DNA of 63,768 nt, the filler included. It is 7 parts of 7 records of this genome, joined end to end, with 100 filler letters (N's around TTAATTAATTAA, not from the genome) between each part and the next. Parts side by side here need not be neighbours in the genome. Positions count along the whole stretch, not along the records: positions 33,151 to 47,970 come from SRR20825010_6885; 6 more parts are not named here. The stretch is one strand, 5' to 3'. The notes below the pieces were generated by a model. It did not search any database and had not been told where the DNA came from. It saw only the letters and a list, made by a program, of their open reading frames with translations. Numbering within the stretch: the stretch's first letter is position 1; each line of letters begins with the position of its first letter. The translations under genes and the position numbers were made by a program. Positions 2,827-43,282 of the stretch are shown piece by piece.

Positions 2827-4893
2827 ATGAAAACTAAATTTTTAAAACCTGTGTTGGCCTTTGCATTCGTTGCAGCTGCTGTTACCGCTTGTAAAGAGAA
2901 AACGGAAGTGGCACATGCAGATAATGAACCTCATGGAATTATTTTGGAGAATATGGATACAACCGTAAGCCCAAAAGTTGATTTCTACAATTATGTGAAT
3001 GGAAATTGGATGAAAAACAATGAAATTCCAGACGATCAAACTAATTGGGGTGGTTTTACCATTTTAAGAAAAAAAACAGATGCAGATGTGCTAAACATAT
3101 TAGCGAAAGCAAAAGAAGGAGGAAAATATGCTCCAGAAACTGACCAAGCAAAAGCATTGATGATTTTTGAATCTAAATTGGATACCATAGCTCGTGATAA
3201 AGCTGGCATTGAACCAATAAAACCAATTCTTGATAAAATTGCAGCAATAAATAGTATTGCAGATTTTCAAAAATTAATGGCTGAAGAAGCTGTTGCAGTT
3301 TCACAACCATTTTTAGGGCTTGCTGCATTTTCAAACCCGAGTAACAGTGCTATGAACTCGGCTTATATTACACCAGGTGGCTTAGGACTTCCAGATCGTG
3401 ATTTTTACACAAATACAGACCCTGCTTCTGTAAAAATCCGTCAGCAGTATGTGGATCATATCACTAGAATGCTTCAATTTTTAGGAGATACTGAAGAAGC
3501 TGCTCGCGAACAAGCAACTACTATTTTAGCTTTCGAAACAAAACTTGCTACACCAAGATTAGATAAAGTTGCAAGCCGTGATTTTAGAAATTTCAACAAT
3601 CCACGTTCGGTTGCAGAACTTCAAAAAATGCTACCACAAATTAAGTGGGAACAGGTTTTTAAAGATATGGGGGTAACCAAAAAAATGGATACCGTTATCG
3701 TTATGCAACCAACTTACATGGAAACATTAAACCAAATGTTTGCTAAACCTGACTTAGAAACATGGAAAACTGTAATGCGTTGGTCTACATTAAACAATGC
3801 AACAGGTATGCTTACTACTGCTATTGATAAAGCAAACTGGGATTTTTATGAAAACACACTTAAAGGTTCAAAAAAACAAAAACCAGCTAATGAACGTGCT
3901 CTTGCAACAGTAAATGGAAGTGTAGGTGAAGCTTTGGGTAAACTTTATGTTGATGAAATGTTCCCGCCAGAAGCAAAAACAAAAGCTGAAGCAATGATAG
4001 CGAATGTAATTGCAGCATACAAAGATCGTATCAACGCATTAGATTGGATGAGTGATAGCACTAAAATAAAAGCTATTGAAAAACTAAATAAATTTACAGT
4101 AAAAGTTGGTTACCCAGACAAATGGAAAGACTATTCTTCAATGGATGTAAAACCAGGGAATACTTTTTATGACAATATGATTGCTGTTCAAACTTACAAT
4201 TTTATTGACAACCTAGCTAAAATTGATGAGCCAGTAGACCGTTCAGAATGGGGAATGAGCCCACAAACCGTAAATGCTTACTTTAACCCTTTCAATAATG
4301 AAATTGTTTTCCCTGCAGCAATTCTTCAACCCCCATTTTATGATTATAAGGCTGATGAAGCTGTAAATTACGGTGGAATGGGCGCAGTAATCGGTCACGA
4401 AATTTCGCATGCTTTTGACGATAGTGGCTCTCGTTTTGATGCTAATGGAAACCTCGTAAACTGGTGGACAGAAACAGACCTAGTAAACTTTACTGAACGC
4501 GGTAATAAACTTGCTGAGCAATACAGCAGTGTGGAGGTTTTAGACAGTGTTTTTATAAACGGAAAATTCACATTAGGTGAAAACATTGGTGACCTTGGTG
4601 GTGTTCTAGGTGCTTATGATGGTTTACAGCGTTTCTACAAAGAAAACGGAAGACCAGACAATATTGATGGATTCACACCTGAACAACGTTTCTTTATGAG
4701 CTGGGCTACCGTTTGGCGTACTAAATCTCGTGACGAGTATATTACAAACCAAGTAAAAACTGACCCACACTCTCCAGGTAAAGTTCGTGCTACACAACCT
4801 TTGGTAAATGTTGATGCTTTCTTTGAAGCTTTCGATATTAAAGAAGGAGACCCAATGTACGTTGCTCCTGAAAACAGAGTTCGTATCTGGTAA
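2827..4893 (+). CDS. pepO: M13 family (neprilysin/PepO-like) zinc metallopeptidase, lipoprotein
   Basis: Lipobox VTAC; VNAYF; HEISH zinc motif; GENIGD; C-terminal RVRIW. Confidence 0.92.
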   Translation: MKTKFLKPVLAFAFVAAAVTACKEKTEVAHADNEPHGIILENMDTTVSPKVDFYNYVNGNWMKNNEIPDDQTNWGGFTILRKKTDADVLNILAKAKEGGKYAPETDQAKALMIFESKLDTIARDKAGIEPIKPILDKIAAINSIADFQKLMAEEAVAVSQPFLGLAAFSNPSNSAMNSAYITPGGLGLPDRDFYTNTDPASVKIRQQYVDHITRMLQFLGDTEEAAREQATTILAFETKLATPRLDKVASRDFRNFNNPRSVAELQKMLPQIKWEQVFKDMGVTKKMDTVIVMQPTYMETLNQMFAKPDLETWKTVMRWSTLNNATGMLTTAIDKANWDFYENTLKGSKKQKPANERALATVNGSVGEALGKLYVDEMFPPEAKTKAEAMIANVIAAYKDRINALDWMSDSTKIKAIEKLNKFTVKVGYPDKWKDYSSMDVKPGNTFYDNMIAVQTYNFIDNLAKIDEPVDRSEWGMSPQTVNAYFNPFNNEIVFPAAILQPPFYDYKADEAVNYGGMGAVIGHEISHAFDDSGSRFDANGNLVNWWTETDLVNFTERGNKLAEQYSSVEVLDSVFINGKFTLGENIGDLGGVLGAYDGLQRFYKENGRPDNIDGFTPEQRFFMSWATVWRTKSRDEYITNQVKTDPHSPGKVRATQPLVNVDAFFEAFDIKEGDPMYVAPENRVRIW

Positions 4894-25984: not shown

Positions 25985-26940
25985 ATGAATTTAAACAACA
26001 AATTATGTTCAGAATGTTTTATGGACCAGGGTCTTAAACTCTTGGTAGAGCGTAATGGAATCGAAAATTCAGAAAACTGTACACATTGTTCAAACTCTCA
26101 ACGCTGAACAAATAGAAACTTTAGCTTATAGATTTTTTGTTGTCGGCAGTATTTTTAAACCTGGTTATGGAGCTGCTCCAATAATTCAGTTTAATGAACA
26201 CCAAAAAACAAATGTTAAATTATCCGGCTCGTTACAAAATGACATCAAACTTTTTGAAAAAACTCTAGGGGTCGGCTTTTTTCATTATGGTCCCAGACTA
26301 TGGATGATTGAGGAGATTGAGTCTCTAAAAGATTTACAAAATAAGAAATAAGAAAATCAATCTTCATTAGGATAGTCAATGAATTTCCAACGGTTCTATT
26401 AAAAGAAAACCAATTGTTTTATAGGATTCGAACTAACCCCAAAGATCCAACTAATGAAAATGAATACGATAGTTCGCCATATCCAGGAAATGGAAGGTTA
26501 GATAGTGAAAGTCATCCAATTTTATATGGTTCTCAAGATTTAGAAGTTTGTATCCACGAATGTCGTATTACTGTAGAAGATGAAATATATGTTGCAACGC
26601 TTAAACCAAATAAAGTTTTAAAACTTTTAGACTTTACAGAACTAATAGATGAAGGTTGTTCTGAATTTGAGAGTCTAGATTTATCAAAACAAATGTTGTT
26701 TTTAGCTTCAAAGCATTCTTATGAAATATCAAAAGAATTAAGCCTTTACATAAGCACTAAAGGATTTGATGGGATTGTTTACCCATCGTATTTTAGTTTG
26801 GTCAGAACAGGAAAAATTCCTTTCCCCAAAGTTTACGGAATTTCTACAAGAAGAATTCACAACTTGAAAATTAAGTACAATTCCGAACCTTGCATTATTT
26901 AGAAATCCAGTAAAAGACAAAAGAATAAAAGTTAACCTTC
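25985..26940 (+). pseudogene. RES-domain protein with N-terminal CxxC...CxxC Zn finger, three frameshifts
   Basis: Four fragments. 25985-26107: MNLNNKLCSECF...CTHC. To 26351: ...YGPRLWM. From 26351: RKSI...FYRIR..GRL..LYGS..VCIHECR..GFDGIVYPS. From about 26872, in another frame: TIPNLALFRNP. The 3' end is approximate. Confidence 0.75.
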
Positions 26941-26988
26941 GACATATGTATAATGAGCTCATTTAAATAATCATTGTATTATTATTCT

Positions 26989-28221
26989 CTATTTTTTTCT
27001 TTTGTCGAAAAGTGAAATTAGATTCTGCATATCCTCTCCTATCTTTTTCTCCAATACTCTGGCATAAATTTGAGTCGTACTGAGTTTTGTATGTCCTAAC
27101 ATTTTAGAAACGGTCTCTATTGGAACACCGTTGGACAACGTAATAGTTGTAGCAAACGTATGTCGTGCTGAGTGAAAAGTAATATTTTTATGAATGCCGC
27201 AGGCTTTTGTGATTTCCTTTAGATAACTATTCACTTTTTGATTACTAAAAACTGGAAGTAATCTACCACTAATTTTCTGTTCGGTTGAACCCGAGTAGAT
27301 ATCAATTATAATTTTGGCTTTAGGGAGTAAAGGAATCTTTACAGTTTCGTTTGTTTTTTCACGTTTTGTATGTAACCAATAATTTCCGTCAATTCCTCTG
27401 ACCATTTGATGGGTTTCTAACTGTTTGACATCAATATAGGATAAGCCTGTATAACAGGAAAATAAAAATACATTTCGTACTTTTTCATATCCTTCACTTT
27501 TAAATATTGTTTCTTCAATTAATTGTAATTCTCTTTCAGATAAGTAACTCTTTTCAGTTTTCTGGAAATTCAACTTATAATTTCGGAAGGGATCTTTATC
27601 CAGCCATTCCAGTTTTACGGCCAAATTGGTCATTTTCATCAATCGCTCTAAATGCTTCATGGCTCCATTGTTGCCACAGGTTCGTCGTCCACTTTTAGAT
27701 TGATAATTTCTAAGATATTGTTCAAAATCTACAATGAAACTATAGTTCAATTGTTTTAAATAGACGTCGGGGGAGTTAAATTTATGCCGTAAAAATTTAT
27801 GTAAATAACGCTCGGTAGAGTAATAGTTTTTCATCGTACCAAACTTCAAAACAGAAACCATATTAGTATTATGATATGTGACCAATTCTTTTAGGCTCTT
27901 GTTTTGCTCGTCTTGCCCTAAATATCTAGCTTTTACAGCCTGTGCGGTAATCAATTTACCCTCTTGAAGTAACTGTTTGTGCGCATCCATAATCTGGACA
28001 TAAACCTCATCTAAATAGCTGTTAAGTAATCTCGCTTTTTGGCAGGTACCTATGACCCTTCCCTTAGAATCATCCCAAACATTCACAGCGGTGTAACGTT
28101 TTAAACTGATTTCTGCGCGTCTCCCATCGACAGTTATTCGAGCATAAATGGTCAACTTTTCAGGATTGTTATTGATGTCTCTAGTAAAAATTAATACGGT
28201 TAAAGTGCTGTTATTCCTCAT
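26989..28221 (-). CDS. Tyrosine recombinase/integrase, Bacteroidetes IntDOT-like (arm-binding, SAM-like and catalytic domains)
   Basis: IYARITVDG arm domain; YTGLSYID (Ser at Arg-I position); REKT; HSARH; LGHT; TQIYA. Confidence 0.93.
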   Translation of the reverse strand: MRNNSTLTVLIFTRDINNNPEKLTIYARITVDGRRAEISLKRYTAVNVWDDSKGRVIGTCQKARLLNSYLDEVYVQIMDAHKQLLQEGKLITAQAVKARYLGQDEQNKSLKELVTYHNTNMVSVLKFGTMKNYYSTERYLHKFLRHKFNSPDVYLKQLNYSFIVDFEQYLRNYQSKSGRRTCGNNGAMKHLERLMKMTNLAVKLEWLDKDPFRNYKLNFQKTEKSYLSERELQLIEETIFKSEGYEKVRNVFLFSCYTGLSYIDVKQLETHQMVRGIDGNYWLHTKREKTNETVKIPLLPKAKIIIDIYSGSTEQKISGRLLPVFSNQKVNSYLKEITKACGIHKNITFHSARHTFATTITLSNGVPIETVSKMLGHTKLSTTQIYARVLEKKIGEDMQNLISLFDKRKK

Positions 28222-28373
28222 TTTATTCGTCTTTTAAGTGAAACAAATTTTTAAGAAAAGACGATCTTAAATAGCTAAAAAAGCTACTTAAATTTACAAC
28301 AAATTATGTACAAATTCATTCACCGATCTCTACACCAGTTGTATGATATTAAACGATATTATTTGATATCATA

Positions 28374-28415
28374 AAAAATGAAAAGCACTGAAAATCAAAA
28401 GATTAACAGTGCTTT
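28374..28415 (-). terminator. Hairpin/terminator downstream of tRNA-Pro
   Basis: Inverted repeat AAAGCACTG...CAGTGCTTT at 28382-28415, followed by T-rich sequence on the minus strand. Confidence 0.6.
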
Positions 28416-28438
28416 GAAACCACCTAAATAGTGGTTCG

Positions 28439-28512
28439 TCGGGATGACAAGATTTGAACTTGCGACCCCACGCCCCCCAGACGTGTACGCTACCAGGCTG
28501 CGCCACATCCCG
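28439..28512 (-). tRNA. tRNA-Pro(GGG)
   Basis: Minus strand CGGGATGTGGCGCAGCCTGGTAGCGTACACGTCTGGGGGGCGTGGGGTCGCAAGTTCAAATCTTGTCATCCCGA folds as a cloverleaf with anticodon GGG; CCA not encoded. Confidence 0.96.
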
Positions 28513-33220: not shown

Positions 33221-33264
33221 ATGATCGTTGTCATAAAATGGCATATATAAGAAGTTTACTTTTG
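33221..33264 (+). promoter_or_regulatory. CRP/FNR-like box plus -7 promoter (deoC-deoD)
   Basis: ATGATCGTTGTCAT, 22 nt, TACTTTTG. Confidence 0.7.
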
Positions 33265-34839: not shown

Positions 34840-34883
34840 ATGACCTAGGTCATTTTACATTTAAAAAGATAAGACCATTTTTG
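34840..34883 (+). promoter_or_regulatory. CRP/FNR-like box plus -7 promoter (DUF2267 gene)
   Basis: Perfect palindrome ATGACCTAGGTCAT, 22 nt, CATTTTTG. Confidence 0.7.
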
Positions 34884-34907: not shown

Positions 34908-35360
34908 ATGGCACTTAATTTTAATCAGTACGCTACGGAGGGGCATACCTTCCTTAAGGATTACACTAAGCAAATGGATCTGGGCAAAGATACCGACAAA
35001 GCGGGTCGTATTTTAACCTCAGTACTTCATGCCTTAAGGGAAATAATTCCTGTGGAGGAATCCTTGCAATTTATTGCCCAGATGCCCATGTTTTTAAAGG
35101 CCGTTTATGTAAACGGATGGACCGTAAAAAAGGAGAAGCCCAAAATTAAACATATGGCCGAATTTTTGGATTTGGTTAGACAATTCGATGGGCCTGCAGC
35201 AATAAACGATTTTGAATACAGTGACGAAGTGGCTGAAGAATATGTAAACACTACATTTATTTATTTGCGAAAATATGTTTCCCAAGGAGAAATGTCCGAT
35301 ATCCGTGATGCTCTACCAAAAAATCTAAAAGGGATGATCTTTAATAATTTAACATTCTAA
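34908..35360 (+). CDS. DUF2267 family protein
   Basis: VLHALRE..EESLQFIAQMP..LKAVYVNGW; YVSQGE...LP pattern. Confidence 0.8.
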   Translation: MALNFNQYATEGHTFLKDYTKQMDLGKDTDKAGRILTSVLHALREIIPVEESLQFIAQMPMFLKAVYVNGWTVKKEKPKIKHMAEFLDLVRQFDGPAAINDFEYSDEVAEEYVNTTFIYLRKYVSQGEMSDIRDALPKNLKGMIFNNLTF

Positions 35361-36070: not shown

Positions 36071-36463
36071 TTAACGGATTTTTTCTACAACCCTTTTTAA
36101 TTTTTCGCCCACTTCATCCGCTATGTTCATTAAATCCTTATTAATTACCGCCTGCATGGATGCCAAGGGGTTTACGGCTGCAATTTCCACAAGCCCAGGC
36201 TCCTTCTCCATAACAATTACATTACAGGGCAACATGGTACCGATTTTATCTTCGGCCTGTAAGGCTTTATGCGCAAAGGGAGCGTTGCAGGCACCCAAAA
36301 CCATGTAATTATAAAAATCTACATCCAATTTTTTCTTTAAGGTAGCCTTCATATCTATTTCCGTCAGCACCCCAAAGCCTTCTTCCTGCAGGGCCAATTT
36401 GGTTTTTTCCACTGCTTTTTCAAAAGGGGTATTTCCAATTGTTTTATTAAAATAGTATTCCAT
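36071..36463 (-). CDS. DUF302 family protein
   Basis: GFGVLTEID, LGACN, GTMLPCNVIV. Confidence 0.9.
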   Translation of the reverse strand: MEYYFNKTIGNTPFEKAVEKTKLALQEEGFGVLTEIDMKATLKKKLDVDFYNYMVLGACNAPFAHKALQAEDKIGTMLPCNVIVMEKEPGLVEIAAVNPLASMQAVINKDLMNIADEVGEKLKRVVEKIR

Positions 36464-36580
36464 AATAAAATTATTTTTGCGTTTTAATATAGTAATTAAT
36501 GTGCTGTTTTTTTAATCCATTTAAATCGGTCTCTGACCTAAAGAAGTTAGGGTAGTCCTTCTGTAAAAAGGACGATATAC

Positions 36581-36618
36581 AAAAAAAAGGATTGGGATAT
36601 CTATATATCCCAATCCTT
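36581..36618 (-). terminator. Intrinsic terminator of the minus-strand intergenic transcript
   Basis: Minus strand AAGGATTGGGATAT-ATAG-ATATCCCAATCC followed by T8. Confidence 0.85.
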
Positions 36619-36808
36619 AATGTCCGGGCTTGGGCAGCACTTGTGCACTTATCCGGGTCCCGAGCAACAAGCTATAAATGTAACGGCTGTGCAAGGGGGT
36701 AGGGTAATAAGGCTCAAGTGGTTACTTGTGCACCGGTTTATGGTCGCTAAGGCATTACTGCTTAGAAACTTTACTTTTATTTCTTTCAAAGAACGATTAC
36801 TTTTTTAC
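36581..36808 (-). ncRNA. Candidate small RNA (~230 nt); alternatively a 46-aa TTG-start peptide at 36649-36789
   Basis: Own promoter and terminator; boxA-like CGTTCTTTGAAA near the 5' end; GTGCACAAGT twice; the only ATG reads Met-Pro-stop. Confidence 0.55.
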
Positions 36809-36813
36809 TAATA

Positions 36814-36857
36814 CTAATATATGGTTATCATATTGGATACGAAATGACATAAATCAG
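36814..36857 (-). promoter_or_regulatory. CRP/FNR-like box plus -7 promoter (candidate sRNA)
   Basis: ATGACATAAATCAG at 36844-36857, 22 nt, TATATTAG (minus strand) at 36821-36814. Confidence 0.6.
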
Positions 36858-36922
36858 TTGGGTGTTTTTTTCTTATTTCTTAATAAAGGAAGCAGGATTA
36901 TTACGTTTCCTTTTTAAGTAAA

Positions 36923-37789
36923 TTATCCTTTTCCCTGCCGCTCGACAGTCGTGGTTGGGGGTTCTAGTAGTTCAAAGAATTGATCTAGTTTGGGTAAAAT
37001 GATAATTTCCGTCCTACGGTTAATGGCTCTGCCTTCAGTGGTTGCATTGGTAGTCTTGGGAAGGTATTCGGATCTTCCCCCAGCAGTCATCCTAAGGGGT
37101 TGTACCCCAAATTTAGTTTGCATTAATCGTACAATGGAGGTCGCTCTTTTTACACTTAAATCCCAGTTATCGGTCATACAGTCTGTAGATATGGGAACAT
37201 TGTCCGTATGTCCCTCCACTAAAATATCCAGTTCCTTATGGTCATTAATAATCTTGGCTATTTTACCAATAACTTCTTCTGCCCTATTGCTTATATTATA
37301 ACTCCCAGAACGGAAAAGCATTTTGTCCGAGATAGAGACATAGACTACTCCTTTTTTCACCTCAATATTTATATCCTCATCGTCAAAATTGTCCAAGGAC
37401 CTTTTTAAGTTCATTACCAATACCAGATTAATAGAGTCTTTTCGCTGCATGTTACTGGTAAGGTCCTTTATGTATTTATTCTGCTCGTTTAGGGCTTCCA
37501 AAGATTTTTTTATGCTTTCCGCTCCGGATTTGCTCACTACGGATAGATCTGAAAGTCGGGCCAAAAGGTCCGTATTGGTACTTTTAAAGTATTCCATTTG
37601 TTGCTCCAAGGATTTGGATCTGTTTTTCTCATTGGCCAATCCGGCTTCCAGTAAATTAATTTGGTTCTTGCTGGTATTTAATTCATTTTCACAATTTACT
37701 GCCCGGTCTTGCATAGCAGTATACTTTTTTTGGCTTACACAGGATGTAAAAAGTGTAAGTCCCAATACATAAATAAATAGTGTTTTCAT
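36923..37789 (-). CDS. OmpA/MotB C-terminal domain lipoprotein with coiled coil
   Basis: MKTLFIYVLGLTLFTSC lipobox; VEGHTD; NWDLSVKRA; NRRTEI. Confidence 0.9.
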   Translation of the reverse strand: MKTLFIYVLGLTLFTSCVSQKKYTAMQDRAVNCENELNTSKNQINLLEAGLANEKNRSKSLEQQMEYFKSTNTDLLARLSDLSVVSKSGAESIKKSLEALNEQNKYIKDLTSNMQRKDSINLVLVMNLKRSLDNFDDEDINIEVKKGVVYVSISDKMLFRSGSYNISNRAEEVIGKIAKIINDHKELDILVEGHTDNVPISTDCMTDNWDLSVKRATSIVRLMQTKFGVQPLRMTAGGRSEYLPKTTNATTEGRAINRRTEIIILPKLDQFFELLEPPTTTVERQGKG

Positions 37790-37821
37790 AGTCATAAGTT
37801 TATTGGATAATAGTAGTCCCC

Positions 37822-37865
37822 TAAAGAAAGTCACAATTCAATAGGTATCAAATGATAATTATCAT
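37822..37865 (-). promoter_or_regulatory. CRP/FNR-like box upstream of the OmpA/MotB gene (weak -7)
   Basis: Perfect palindrome ATGATAATTATCAT at 37852-37865; at 22-nt spacing the minus strand reads TTTCTTTA. Confidence 0.5.
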
Positions 37866-37987
37866 GTAGGACATTGGTTTATAAGTTTTTAGAGTTTGGT
37901 ATTCCTTGTTCCAAACACTTCATCAGTTTGGTTGCCTGAACTGGATCTACCTATTGTTAAACTTATAAATGTGGGTTGTATGCATAA

Positions 37988-38031
37988 CTGACAATGGTCA
38001 TAGGGTGGTGCAGGGTTAAGGTATAGCTTTA
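37988..38031 (+). promoter_or_regulatory. CRP/FNR-like box plus -7 promoter (38145 operon)
   Basis: CTGACAATGGTCAT, 22 nt, TAGCTTTA. Confidence 0.65.
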
Positions 38032-43183: not shown

Positions 43184-43227
43184 CAAAGATAGTATGAAAG
43201 TAAAGGGCTTAAAATGAGGAATGTCAT
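43184..43227 (-). promoter_or_regulatory. CRP/FNR-like box plus -7 promoter (mlaEFD)
   Basis: ATGAGGAATGTCAT at 43214-43227, 22 nt, TATCTTTG (minus strand) at 43191-43184. Confidence 0.7.
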
Positions 43228-43238
43228 ATATAGGGGTG

Positions 43239-43282
43239 GTGACCGTTGTCATTTTATATTCCTTGGAACCGTATTAGTTTTG
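43239..43282 (+). promoter_or_regulatory. CRP/FNR-like box plus -7 promoter (L,D-transpeptidase)
   Basis: GTGACCGTTGTCAT, 22 nt, TAGTTTTG. Confidence 0.7.

Follow-up and report, generated by a model that had tools for sequence, protein, structure and literature searches.

We analysed a 63,768-nt stretch of DNA (hereafter the window; seven parts of seven records of one genome, joined with filler) and concentrated on the region between an OmpA-family gene and a DUF302 gene on its minus strand. This region is predicted to hold an RNA gene of ~225 nt, spanning ~36806 to 36581 on the minus strand. We consider it probable that this gene encodes a stand-alone, stress-induced small RNA (sRNA), driven by a class-II promoter of the CRP/FNR type, led by a boxA of the Nus type, and acting in trans through an unpaired linker, a C-rich apical loop, or both. 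In terms of sequence, the unit is the short, Arenibacter-specific member of a family of RNAs that have the same promoter and leader and different bodies. All the features listed in a preliminary description of the locus (activator box, -7 box, boxA-like word, repeats, ATG, short open reading frame (ORF) and terminator) were found at the minus-strand positions given there; they are collected in Table 1 with those identified here.

The OmpA protein of the window is 88-97% identical to those of eleven Arenibacter loci (L001-L011), and the window can therefore be assigned to Arenibacter. The preliminary description had made its reading depend on conservation among relatives, and ten of these 11 ompA loci do carry the intergenic unit, with identities of 73-94%. 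Its copy number, like the regulon discussed below, was examined in related genomes rather than in the window's own: the full unit is single-copy in four of the five Arenibacter genomes searched, and the fifth lacks it. The leader, the hairpin and the terminator are invariant across 11 aligned sequences. GC content is 0.50-0.51 within the unit versus 0.22-0.26 in its flanks.

The promoter has a strict geometry. The activator box is separated from the -7 box by exactly 23 nt, as in every matched promoter of the short, long and L227/L229 RNAs described below. It belongs to the two-fold symmetric TGA-N6-TCA type, and relatives carry the perfect palindromes TGATCTAGATCA and TGACCTAGGTCA. If transcription starts 4-8 nt past the -7 box, the centre of the activator box would lie ~41-45 bp upstream of the start. 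Class-II sites, such as those of CRP and FNR in E. coli, are centred near -41.5 and overlap the -35/-33 element, and the predicted layout is that of a class-II activator site of the CRP/FNR family. Excerpts of PMC7366714 quote TTTG at -33 and TAnnTTTG at -7 as the consensus elements. We scanned three related genomes with a composite pattern (TGAY-N4-RTCA, 23 nt, TAnnTTnG) and found 38, 43 and 32 matches, clustered in islands, against 0, 0 and 1 for a reversed-pattern control. The window itself contains seven such sites at up to one mismatch when 0.44 are expected (none of 100 shuffles reached seven), and all of them, including that of the RNA, lie within 10 kb. The box that had been described as CRP/FNR-like is thus a real and recurrent promoter element, of predicted class-II type, both in the genomes and in the window, and the pattern matches indicate that a stress-regulon island extends into the window.

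The composition of the regulon was assessed from the first ORF of at least 50-60 codons within 300-350 nt of each site, which is not a curated gene call. In relatives, these ORFs encode Usp (5), YtxH (2), MscS-type channels (2), YkuD (2), MlaE and HSP20 (three in one survey and one in the other), together with FtsH-like AAA proteins, a Dps-like ferritin, baeRF_family7, Pyridox_ox_2, pyruvate:ferredoxin oxidoreductase, a radical-SAM protein, NadA and a Pta-like protein. From these annotations, the set looks like a regulon of general stress or dormancy that includes some genes of anaerobic metabolism, and low oxygen is a possible inducing signal. In both complete genomes examined (G284 and G406), the promoter islands contain genes with an HTH_Crp_2 domain, for example at position 4974612 of G284, 32 kb from the RNA locus of that genome; domain annotation of the window genes revealed no HTH_Crp_2 gene in the window. 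The RNA would be induced together with the stress regulon, and candidate signals are low oxygen, energy limitation and stationary phase.

The RNA starts with a boxA-like leader whose word, GTTCTTTGA, matches at 8 of 9 positions the word GTTCATTGA found in the rRNA (rrn) operons of these bacteria. The sequence ahead of 16S includes AGTTCATTGA(C/T)ATA in A. palladensis and Maribacter halichondriae and GTTCATAGACATA (word GTTCATAGA) in Ulvibacterium, while AAAGTTCATTGACATATTGGGACAG occurs again after tRNA-Ala, before 23S, in both complete genomes. At one of these operons (L182), GTTCTTTAAG is also present between two spacer tRNAs. Since a word located before both 16S and 23S defines the rrn boxA, GTTCATTGA is presumably the boxA of these Flavobacteriaceae rRNA operons. 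The likeness to boxA in the first account is therefore real in terms of the family's own boxA; the leader of L007 is identical to the rrn word, and that of L006 is GCTCTTTGA. The longer form, GTTCTTTGAAA, has a single exact copy in the window (four matches at up to one mismatch, with 3.2 expected).

Two patterns indicate how the leader might be read. The boxA-like word is 17-27 nt past the -7 box in at least 20 promoters listed, and this variation in distance fits a signal in RNA rather than a DNA operator. Among 48 distinct composite promoters examined, four have a boxA-like word within 70 nt, and all four are followed by at least 190 nt of ORF-free RNA ending in a terminator. In E. coli, boxA protects long untranslated RNA from Rho (excerpts of PMC4807359). 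By analogy, the same protection may extend to the stress RNA: its boxA would recruit NusB/S10, the untranslated transcript would escape premature (Rho) termination, and the RNA would be released at its terminator.

The body of the RNA is predicted to be structured. The 236-nt RNA folds with -63.4 kcal/mol (z = -4.0, none of 200 shuffles as good), and the RNAalifold consensus of 11 sequences has 55 predicted pairs, which make up the hairpin, the closed stem and the terminator. The ten pairs of the hairpin are identical in 11/11 sequences (core CUAAGCAGUAAUGCCUUAG, GUAA loop, one bulged C), and 11 of the 14 terminator pairs show no variation at all. We judged covariation by RNAalifold and by counting pairs on the consensus fold, where 97.4% of the cells are paired. 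Changes on both sides affect nine pairs and 20 cells, versus 4.6 and 6.1 in shuffles (1/500 and 0/500, respectively); when the partners were slid by 1-3 columns as a control, at most three pairs had double changes. All nine compensatory pairs (4+4+1) are within helices 3-5. These compensatory base changes support the predicted fold.

Two unpaired segments stand out as candidate sites of action. The CCAUAAA linker that follows the hairpin has a CAUA core in 14 of 17 linkers, when the short form is taken together with module 3 of the long locus described below; the variants are UAUA in L008/L009 and L016 and UGUA in L026. This linker may act as a seed. The C-rich loop could be a second seed or a partner of the terminator's 5' arm; its complement is found four times in the window at up to two mismatches, with 3.2 expected. 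The RNA would act in trans through these conserved segments, most likely by pairing with the start-codon regions of mRNAs, because the mRNAs of Bacteroidetes lack Shine-Dalgarno sites (excerpts of PMC7366714).

The word GTGCACAAGT had been proposed as a repeated seed or protein-binding site, an idea that did not survive comparison. Its exact copies in the window are at 36733-36724 and 36648-36639 (a third TGCACA is at 36693-36688), and the word is not rare, with four window matches at up to one mismatch versus 2.55 expected. Relatives mostly have GTGCAAAAGT, and L008-L010 have GTGTAAAAGA or GTGGAAAAGA. Because the exact pair occurs in one of the 11 sequences, that of the window, and the 3' copy forms the 3' strand of helix 3, we regard the repeat as a by-product of helix sequence and not as seeds or protein sites.

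Each of three Arenibacter genomes has exactly two copies of the hairpin word, one in the short unit and one at a second locus (L089, L090 and L094) away from ompA. The second locus has the same activator box, the same 23-nt spacing to a -7 box (TATTTTAG) and the leader GTTCTTTGAAAA, followed by ~650 nt devoid of any ORF of 60 codons. Since the same promoter and boxA head this long locus away from ompA, the short RNA is likely to have a promoter of its own. The long locus is made of three modules, each closed by a hairpin and a T-run, with the invariant hairpin opening module 3; L016, L017, L018, L026 and L047 carry a further conserved module past it. A blastn search recovered the long locus from 13 non-Arenibacter loci, 0-2 kb past ompA, in Pelagihabitans, Eudoraea, Saonia, Maribacter, Ulvibacterium, Sediminicola, Algibacter and other Flavobacteriaceae, and pattern searches placed the promoter and leader also in L021, L024 and L025. 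The short Arenibacter unit thus occupies the position after ompA that is held by the long locus in other genera. The long locus is absent from A. palladensis (G003) and P308M17 (G005). When 401 Flavobacteriaceae genomes were scanned with a strict pattern, 53 gave a match, and 13 of these were judged to have the full architecture; most of the others are noise, given that the reversed-pattern control matched 16 genomes.

Other members of the family have other bodies. Maribacter halichondriae (G406) encodes two boxA-led RNAs of this kind, L227 and L229, at ~2.736 and 2.749 Mb, the latter being a ~190-nt RNA with its terminator, 75 nt upstream of a Pta-like gene. In Gelidibacter japonicus (L021:5772-6530), the promoter and boxA run straight into a long ORF, with no RNA module. 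Module 1 of the long locus (L089:1143-1292 and 14 relatives) consists of a ~115-nt conserved structure and a terminator, with 40 predicted pairs, 14 of them showing compensatory changes, and extended segments that are unpaired and never vary. Pairing is possible between the 3' strand of the closing helix and the 5' half of the terminator, which gives the modelled fold a riboswitch-like terminator/antiterminator logic. This module is tandemly duplicated in the two Eudoraea loci. We rejected homology between module 1 and the body of the short RNA, as the best hit of an nhmmer profile had E = 0.12 and covered the terminator only. The family is for this reason defined by its promoter, its boxA leader and a terminated structured RNA.

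Searches of Rfam 15 returned no known RNA for any of these loci. At the gathering threshold, the only hit in the window was a tRNA (28439-28512), and at E<=10 there was no credible match on the unit, the best being snoU54 (25 bits) elsewhere in the window. Module 1 had no Rfam match, and neither the long loci nor L227 and L229 matched a family, or any known aptamer, at permissive thresholds. Rfam 15 and a full-text literature search gave no description of such an RNA or regulon in Flavobacteriaceae.

The unit can be compared with several known systems. FnrS is an enterobacterial sRNA activated by FNR/CRP, and the unit resembles it in being a short terminated RNA with a class-II CRP/FNR-type promoter site that would form an arm of a global regulon. 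The Arenibacter RNA is, however, twice as long, has a boxA leader, and matches neither FnrS nor any other Rfam family in sequence or in structure. To our knowledge, the Bacteroidetes are a phylum without Hfq. GibS and other intergenic sRNAs of Bacteroides thetaiotaomicron, as presented in excerpts of PMC7366714, have a promoter of the TAnnTTTG type, an intrinsic terminator and a conserved, potentially seed-forming single-stranded segment towards the 5' side, all of which have counterparts in the unit; the intrinsic 3' terminator by which a canonical intergenic sRNA is recognised in that source is present here. That source also asks for an own transcription start and read coverage, where the counterpart is a set of low-depth RNA-library contigs that cover the adjoining genes as well. 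In contrast to the GibS group, the Arenibacter unit comes from Flavobacteriia, has an activator box and a boxA, shows no sequence likeness and is known from sequence. With the leaders of rrn operons, where boxA serves NusB-NusE antitermination (excerpts of PMC4807359), the unit shares an early position of the boxA word in a long untranslated RNA; the word here is GTTCWTTGA, which in relatives precedes both 16S and 23S. The unit differs from them in not being an rRNA operon and in one mismatch to the family's rrn word, and the likeness is one of sequence only. Finally, SreA and EutX/Rli55 are riboswitch or leader RNAs that, once terminated, double as sRNAs, and EAR is an antitermination RNA of Bacillus; like them, the unit is a structured RNA that closes with a terminator ahead of a gene, and the long locus has a terminator/antiterminator logic, but without an aptamer known to Rfam.

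An sRNA within a global regulon is a known kind of element; what would be new here is that it has a boxA leader, an activator box at a fixed distance and relatives made of several modules. RNA regulation in Bacteroidota beyond the gut Bacteroides is almost unexplored, and the marine Flavobacteriaceae would gain a concrete, conserved and testable system, a large CRP/FNR-type stress regulon of fixed promoter geometry containing boxA-led non-coding RNAs. If boxA works as it does in rRNA operons, the Nus factors, known mainly from ribosome synthesis and phage antitermination, would be linked to stress RNAs. For the window, the gain in annotation is one RNA gene and seven regulated promoters, all predicted.

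Several observations weigh against a stand-alone sRNA. The RNA evidence consists of contigs from RNA libraries (four runs) with patchy, low-depth cover, in which gaps were given no weight: one contig (X2) covers 36605-36779 and another (X4) 36651-36860, the depths (3-7) are no higher than those of the adjoining genes, X4 extends upstream of the inferred start, and a third contig (X3, 36468-36618) bridges the terminator. DNA carry-over or read-through may account for these contigs. Once the terminator is removed, the fold no longer stands out (z = -1.6, equalled by 9 of 200 shuffles), which means that much of the excess of stability comes from the terminator. The covariation was assessed on 11 related sequences, with a fold taken from that very alignment. 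No outlier appeared when duplex energies were computed for the leader and linker against 54 start regions of the window, those of the neighbours included. The unit is also dispensable: in Arenibacter sp. P308M17 (L011), the entire segment of ~400 nt is missing, and the DUF302 gene begins 73 nt past ompA (L011:3913-3985, compared with 36464-36922 in the window). In other species, AAAAACAC is seen at both borders of the segment absent from L011, which could reflect a microhomology deletion or an insertion with target duplication. We rejected the idea of a mobile element, as the full unit is single-copy per genome, although the two borders would fit an insertion as well as a deletion.

The arrangement of neighbouring genes also speaks against independence. 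DUF302 is co-directional with the unit and next to its position in 11/11 Arenibacter loci, it follows the long locus in L017, L018, L026 and L044 from other genera, and in L229 the promoter, boxA, RNA and terminator are found 75 nt before pta. The unit could accordingly be a cis-acting leader or attenuator of DUF302, with a terminator made conditional by boxA/Nus, a ligand or a protein, and the ~225-nt RNA mainly a by-product. The direct passage from promoter and boxA to a long ORF in L021, the riboswitch-like logic of module 1, the contig that crosses the terminator, and the possible pairing of the C-rich loop with the terminator's 5' arm (a reading of the alignment and fold) would fit this scheme. 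This is the main rival of the sRNA reading, but we think it unlikely. The terminator is strong and invariant (14 bp and T8), the gap to DUF302 is 118-160 nt and in 5 of 11 species (L002, L004, L008, L009 and L010, at about 4360-4410) contains an extra hairpin of ~45 nt with a T-run, and P308M17 retains DUF302 without the unit. Moreover, the gene next to the long locus is convergent in Pelagihabitans, and in Arenibacter the next ORF is 350 nt away.

The boxA leader could also couple the stress RNAs to rRNA antitermination, which we regard as a speculative and rather doubtful reading. The RNAs would then be a growth-rate sensor that is dependent on NusB/S10 and feeds the stress regulon, in which these factors, freed as rRNA synthesis falls, would let the RNAs run through their own terminators; or they would be decoys that, as bulk RNAs, draw Nus factors from rRNA operons during dormancy. 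If true, the multi-module relatives would represent a novel type of non-coding operon, dependent on Nus factors and gated in a riboswitch-like manner.

We find it very improbable that there is no separate gene and that the region is a long 3' untranslated region of ompA, with the hairpin as the ompA terminator. A scan for consensus terminators was negative from the ompA stop (36923) to 36618, the X4 contig reaches past the inferred start, and the ompA promoter belongs to the same regulon; against this, a complete promoter is conserved at fixed geometry, the same promoter drives the long locus at sites unlinked to ompA, and a short hairpin with TTTATT follows ompA in all species compared. Even less credible is a decaying, functionless relic of the multi-module locus. 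The unit does sit at the post-ompA site of the long locus of other genera, is lost in one species and has a body with no detectable likeness to module 1, but its leader, hairpin and terminator do not vary across the 11 sequences, and its body varies by compensatory pairs.

A small Cys-rich peptide, or a precursor of the RiPP type, encoded by the TTG-start ORF deserves next to no credence: the ORF keeps 46-48 codons in 7 of 11 sequences, but it is truncated or frameshifted in the other four (L003, L004, L007 and L010), the Cys-rich tail is not conserved (the Cys pattern is gone in L008/L009), the alignment shows four separate single-base indels in the RNA body, the start codon is TTG, and the 5' half of the ORF shows no nucleotide changes at all, synonymous ones included, and is therefore not evolving as coding sequence does. 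The sole ATG of the unit reads Met-Pro-stop, and domain annotation of the window genes confirms that no modifying enzyme is near. The earlier preference for a non-coding RNA over a peptide gene is thus upheld.

Table 1. Predicted features of the RNA unit, its neighbours, the composite promoters of the window and related loci. Positions without a locus prefix refer to the window.
Feature	Position	Strand	Remarks
OmpA-family gene	36923..37834	-	upstream neighbour; look-alike class-II promoter at 38000-37958
Palindrome-like activator box TGATTTATGTCA	36845..36856	-	family consensus TGAYCTRGRTCA
-33-like TTTC	36841..36844	-	abuts activator box; TTTTG in most relatives
-7 box TATATTAG	36814..36821	-	Bacteroidetes TAnnTTTG type
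Inferred transcription start	36805..36809	-	placed from position of -7 box
boxA-like GTTCTTTGA	36786..36794	-	~+12 to +24 of RNA; longer form GTTCTTTGAAA at 36794-36784
Invariant hairpin	36743..36769	-	core CTAAGCAGTAATGCCTTAG at 36765-36747; GUAA tetraloop; one bulged C
Unpaired linker CGACCATAAA (also written CGACCAUAAA)	36737..36746	-	candidate seed
Closed irregular long stem	36624..36736	-	helices 2-5 of consensus fold; holds both GTGCACAAGT copies
Unpaired C-rich apical loop ACCCTACCCCCTTG (also written ACCCUACCCCCUUG)	36692..36705	-	conserved
Intrinsic terminator	36581..36618	-	14-bp stem 36618-36587; T-run (T8) to 36581
46-codon TTG ORF	36649..36789	-	rejected as gene
Spacer from unit to DUF302	36464..36580	-	
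DUF302 gene	36071..36463	-	downstream neighbour, conserved; Pfam
Composite promoter	33222-33264	+	deoC
Composite promoter, perfect palindrome TGACCTAGGTCA	34841-34883	+	DUF2267 gene 34908-35360
Composite promoter	37958-38000	-	ompA
Composite promoter	37989-38031	+	divergent 169-codon gene
Composite promoter	43184-43226	-	mlaE operon
Composite promoter	43240-43282	+	YkuD-AhpC pair
Long locus	L089:1021-1680; L012:4957-5610; also L013-L018, L026, L044, L047		~650 nt or longer
GTTCATTGA(C)ATA words in rRNA operons	L151:1371-1379; L155:1351-1359; L182:658; L183:407 and 682		before 16S and before 23S

Two other traits of the window lie outside the RNA locus. The interval 26414-28512 contains, next to one another, a RES-domain gene, a gene for a tyrosine integrase (26989-28221, minus strand) and a tRNA gene (28439-28512, minus strand), and it looks like the edge of an integrated element. 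GC content rises along the window from 0.30-0.35 (1-33 kb) to 0.37-0.44 (33-57 kb) and 0.51-0.57 (57-63 kb); the GC-rich stretch at 57-63 kb is unusual compared with the rest, and foreign DNA or a mis-join could explain it.

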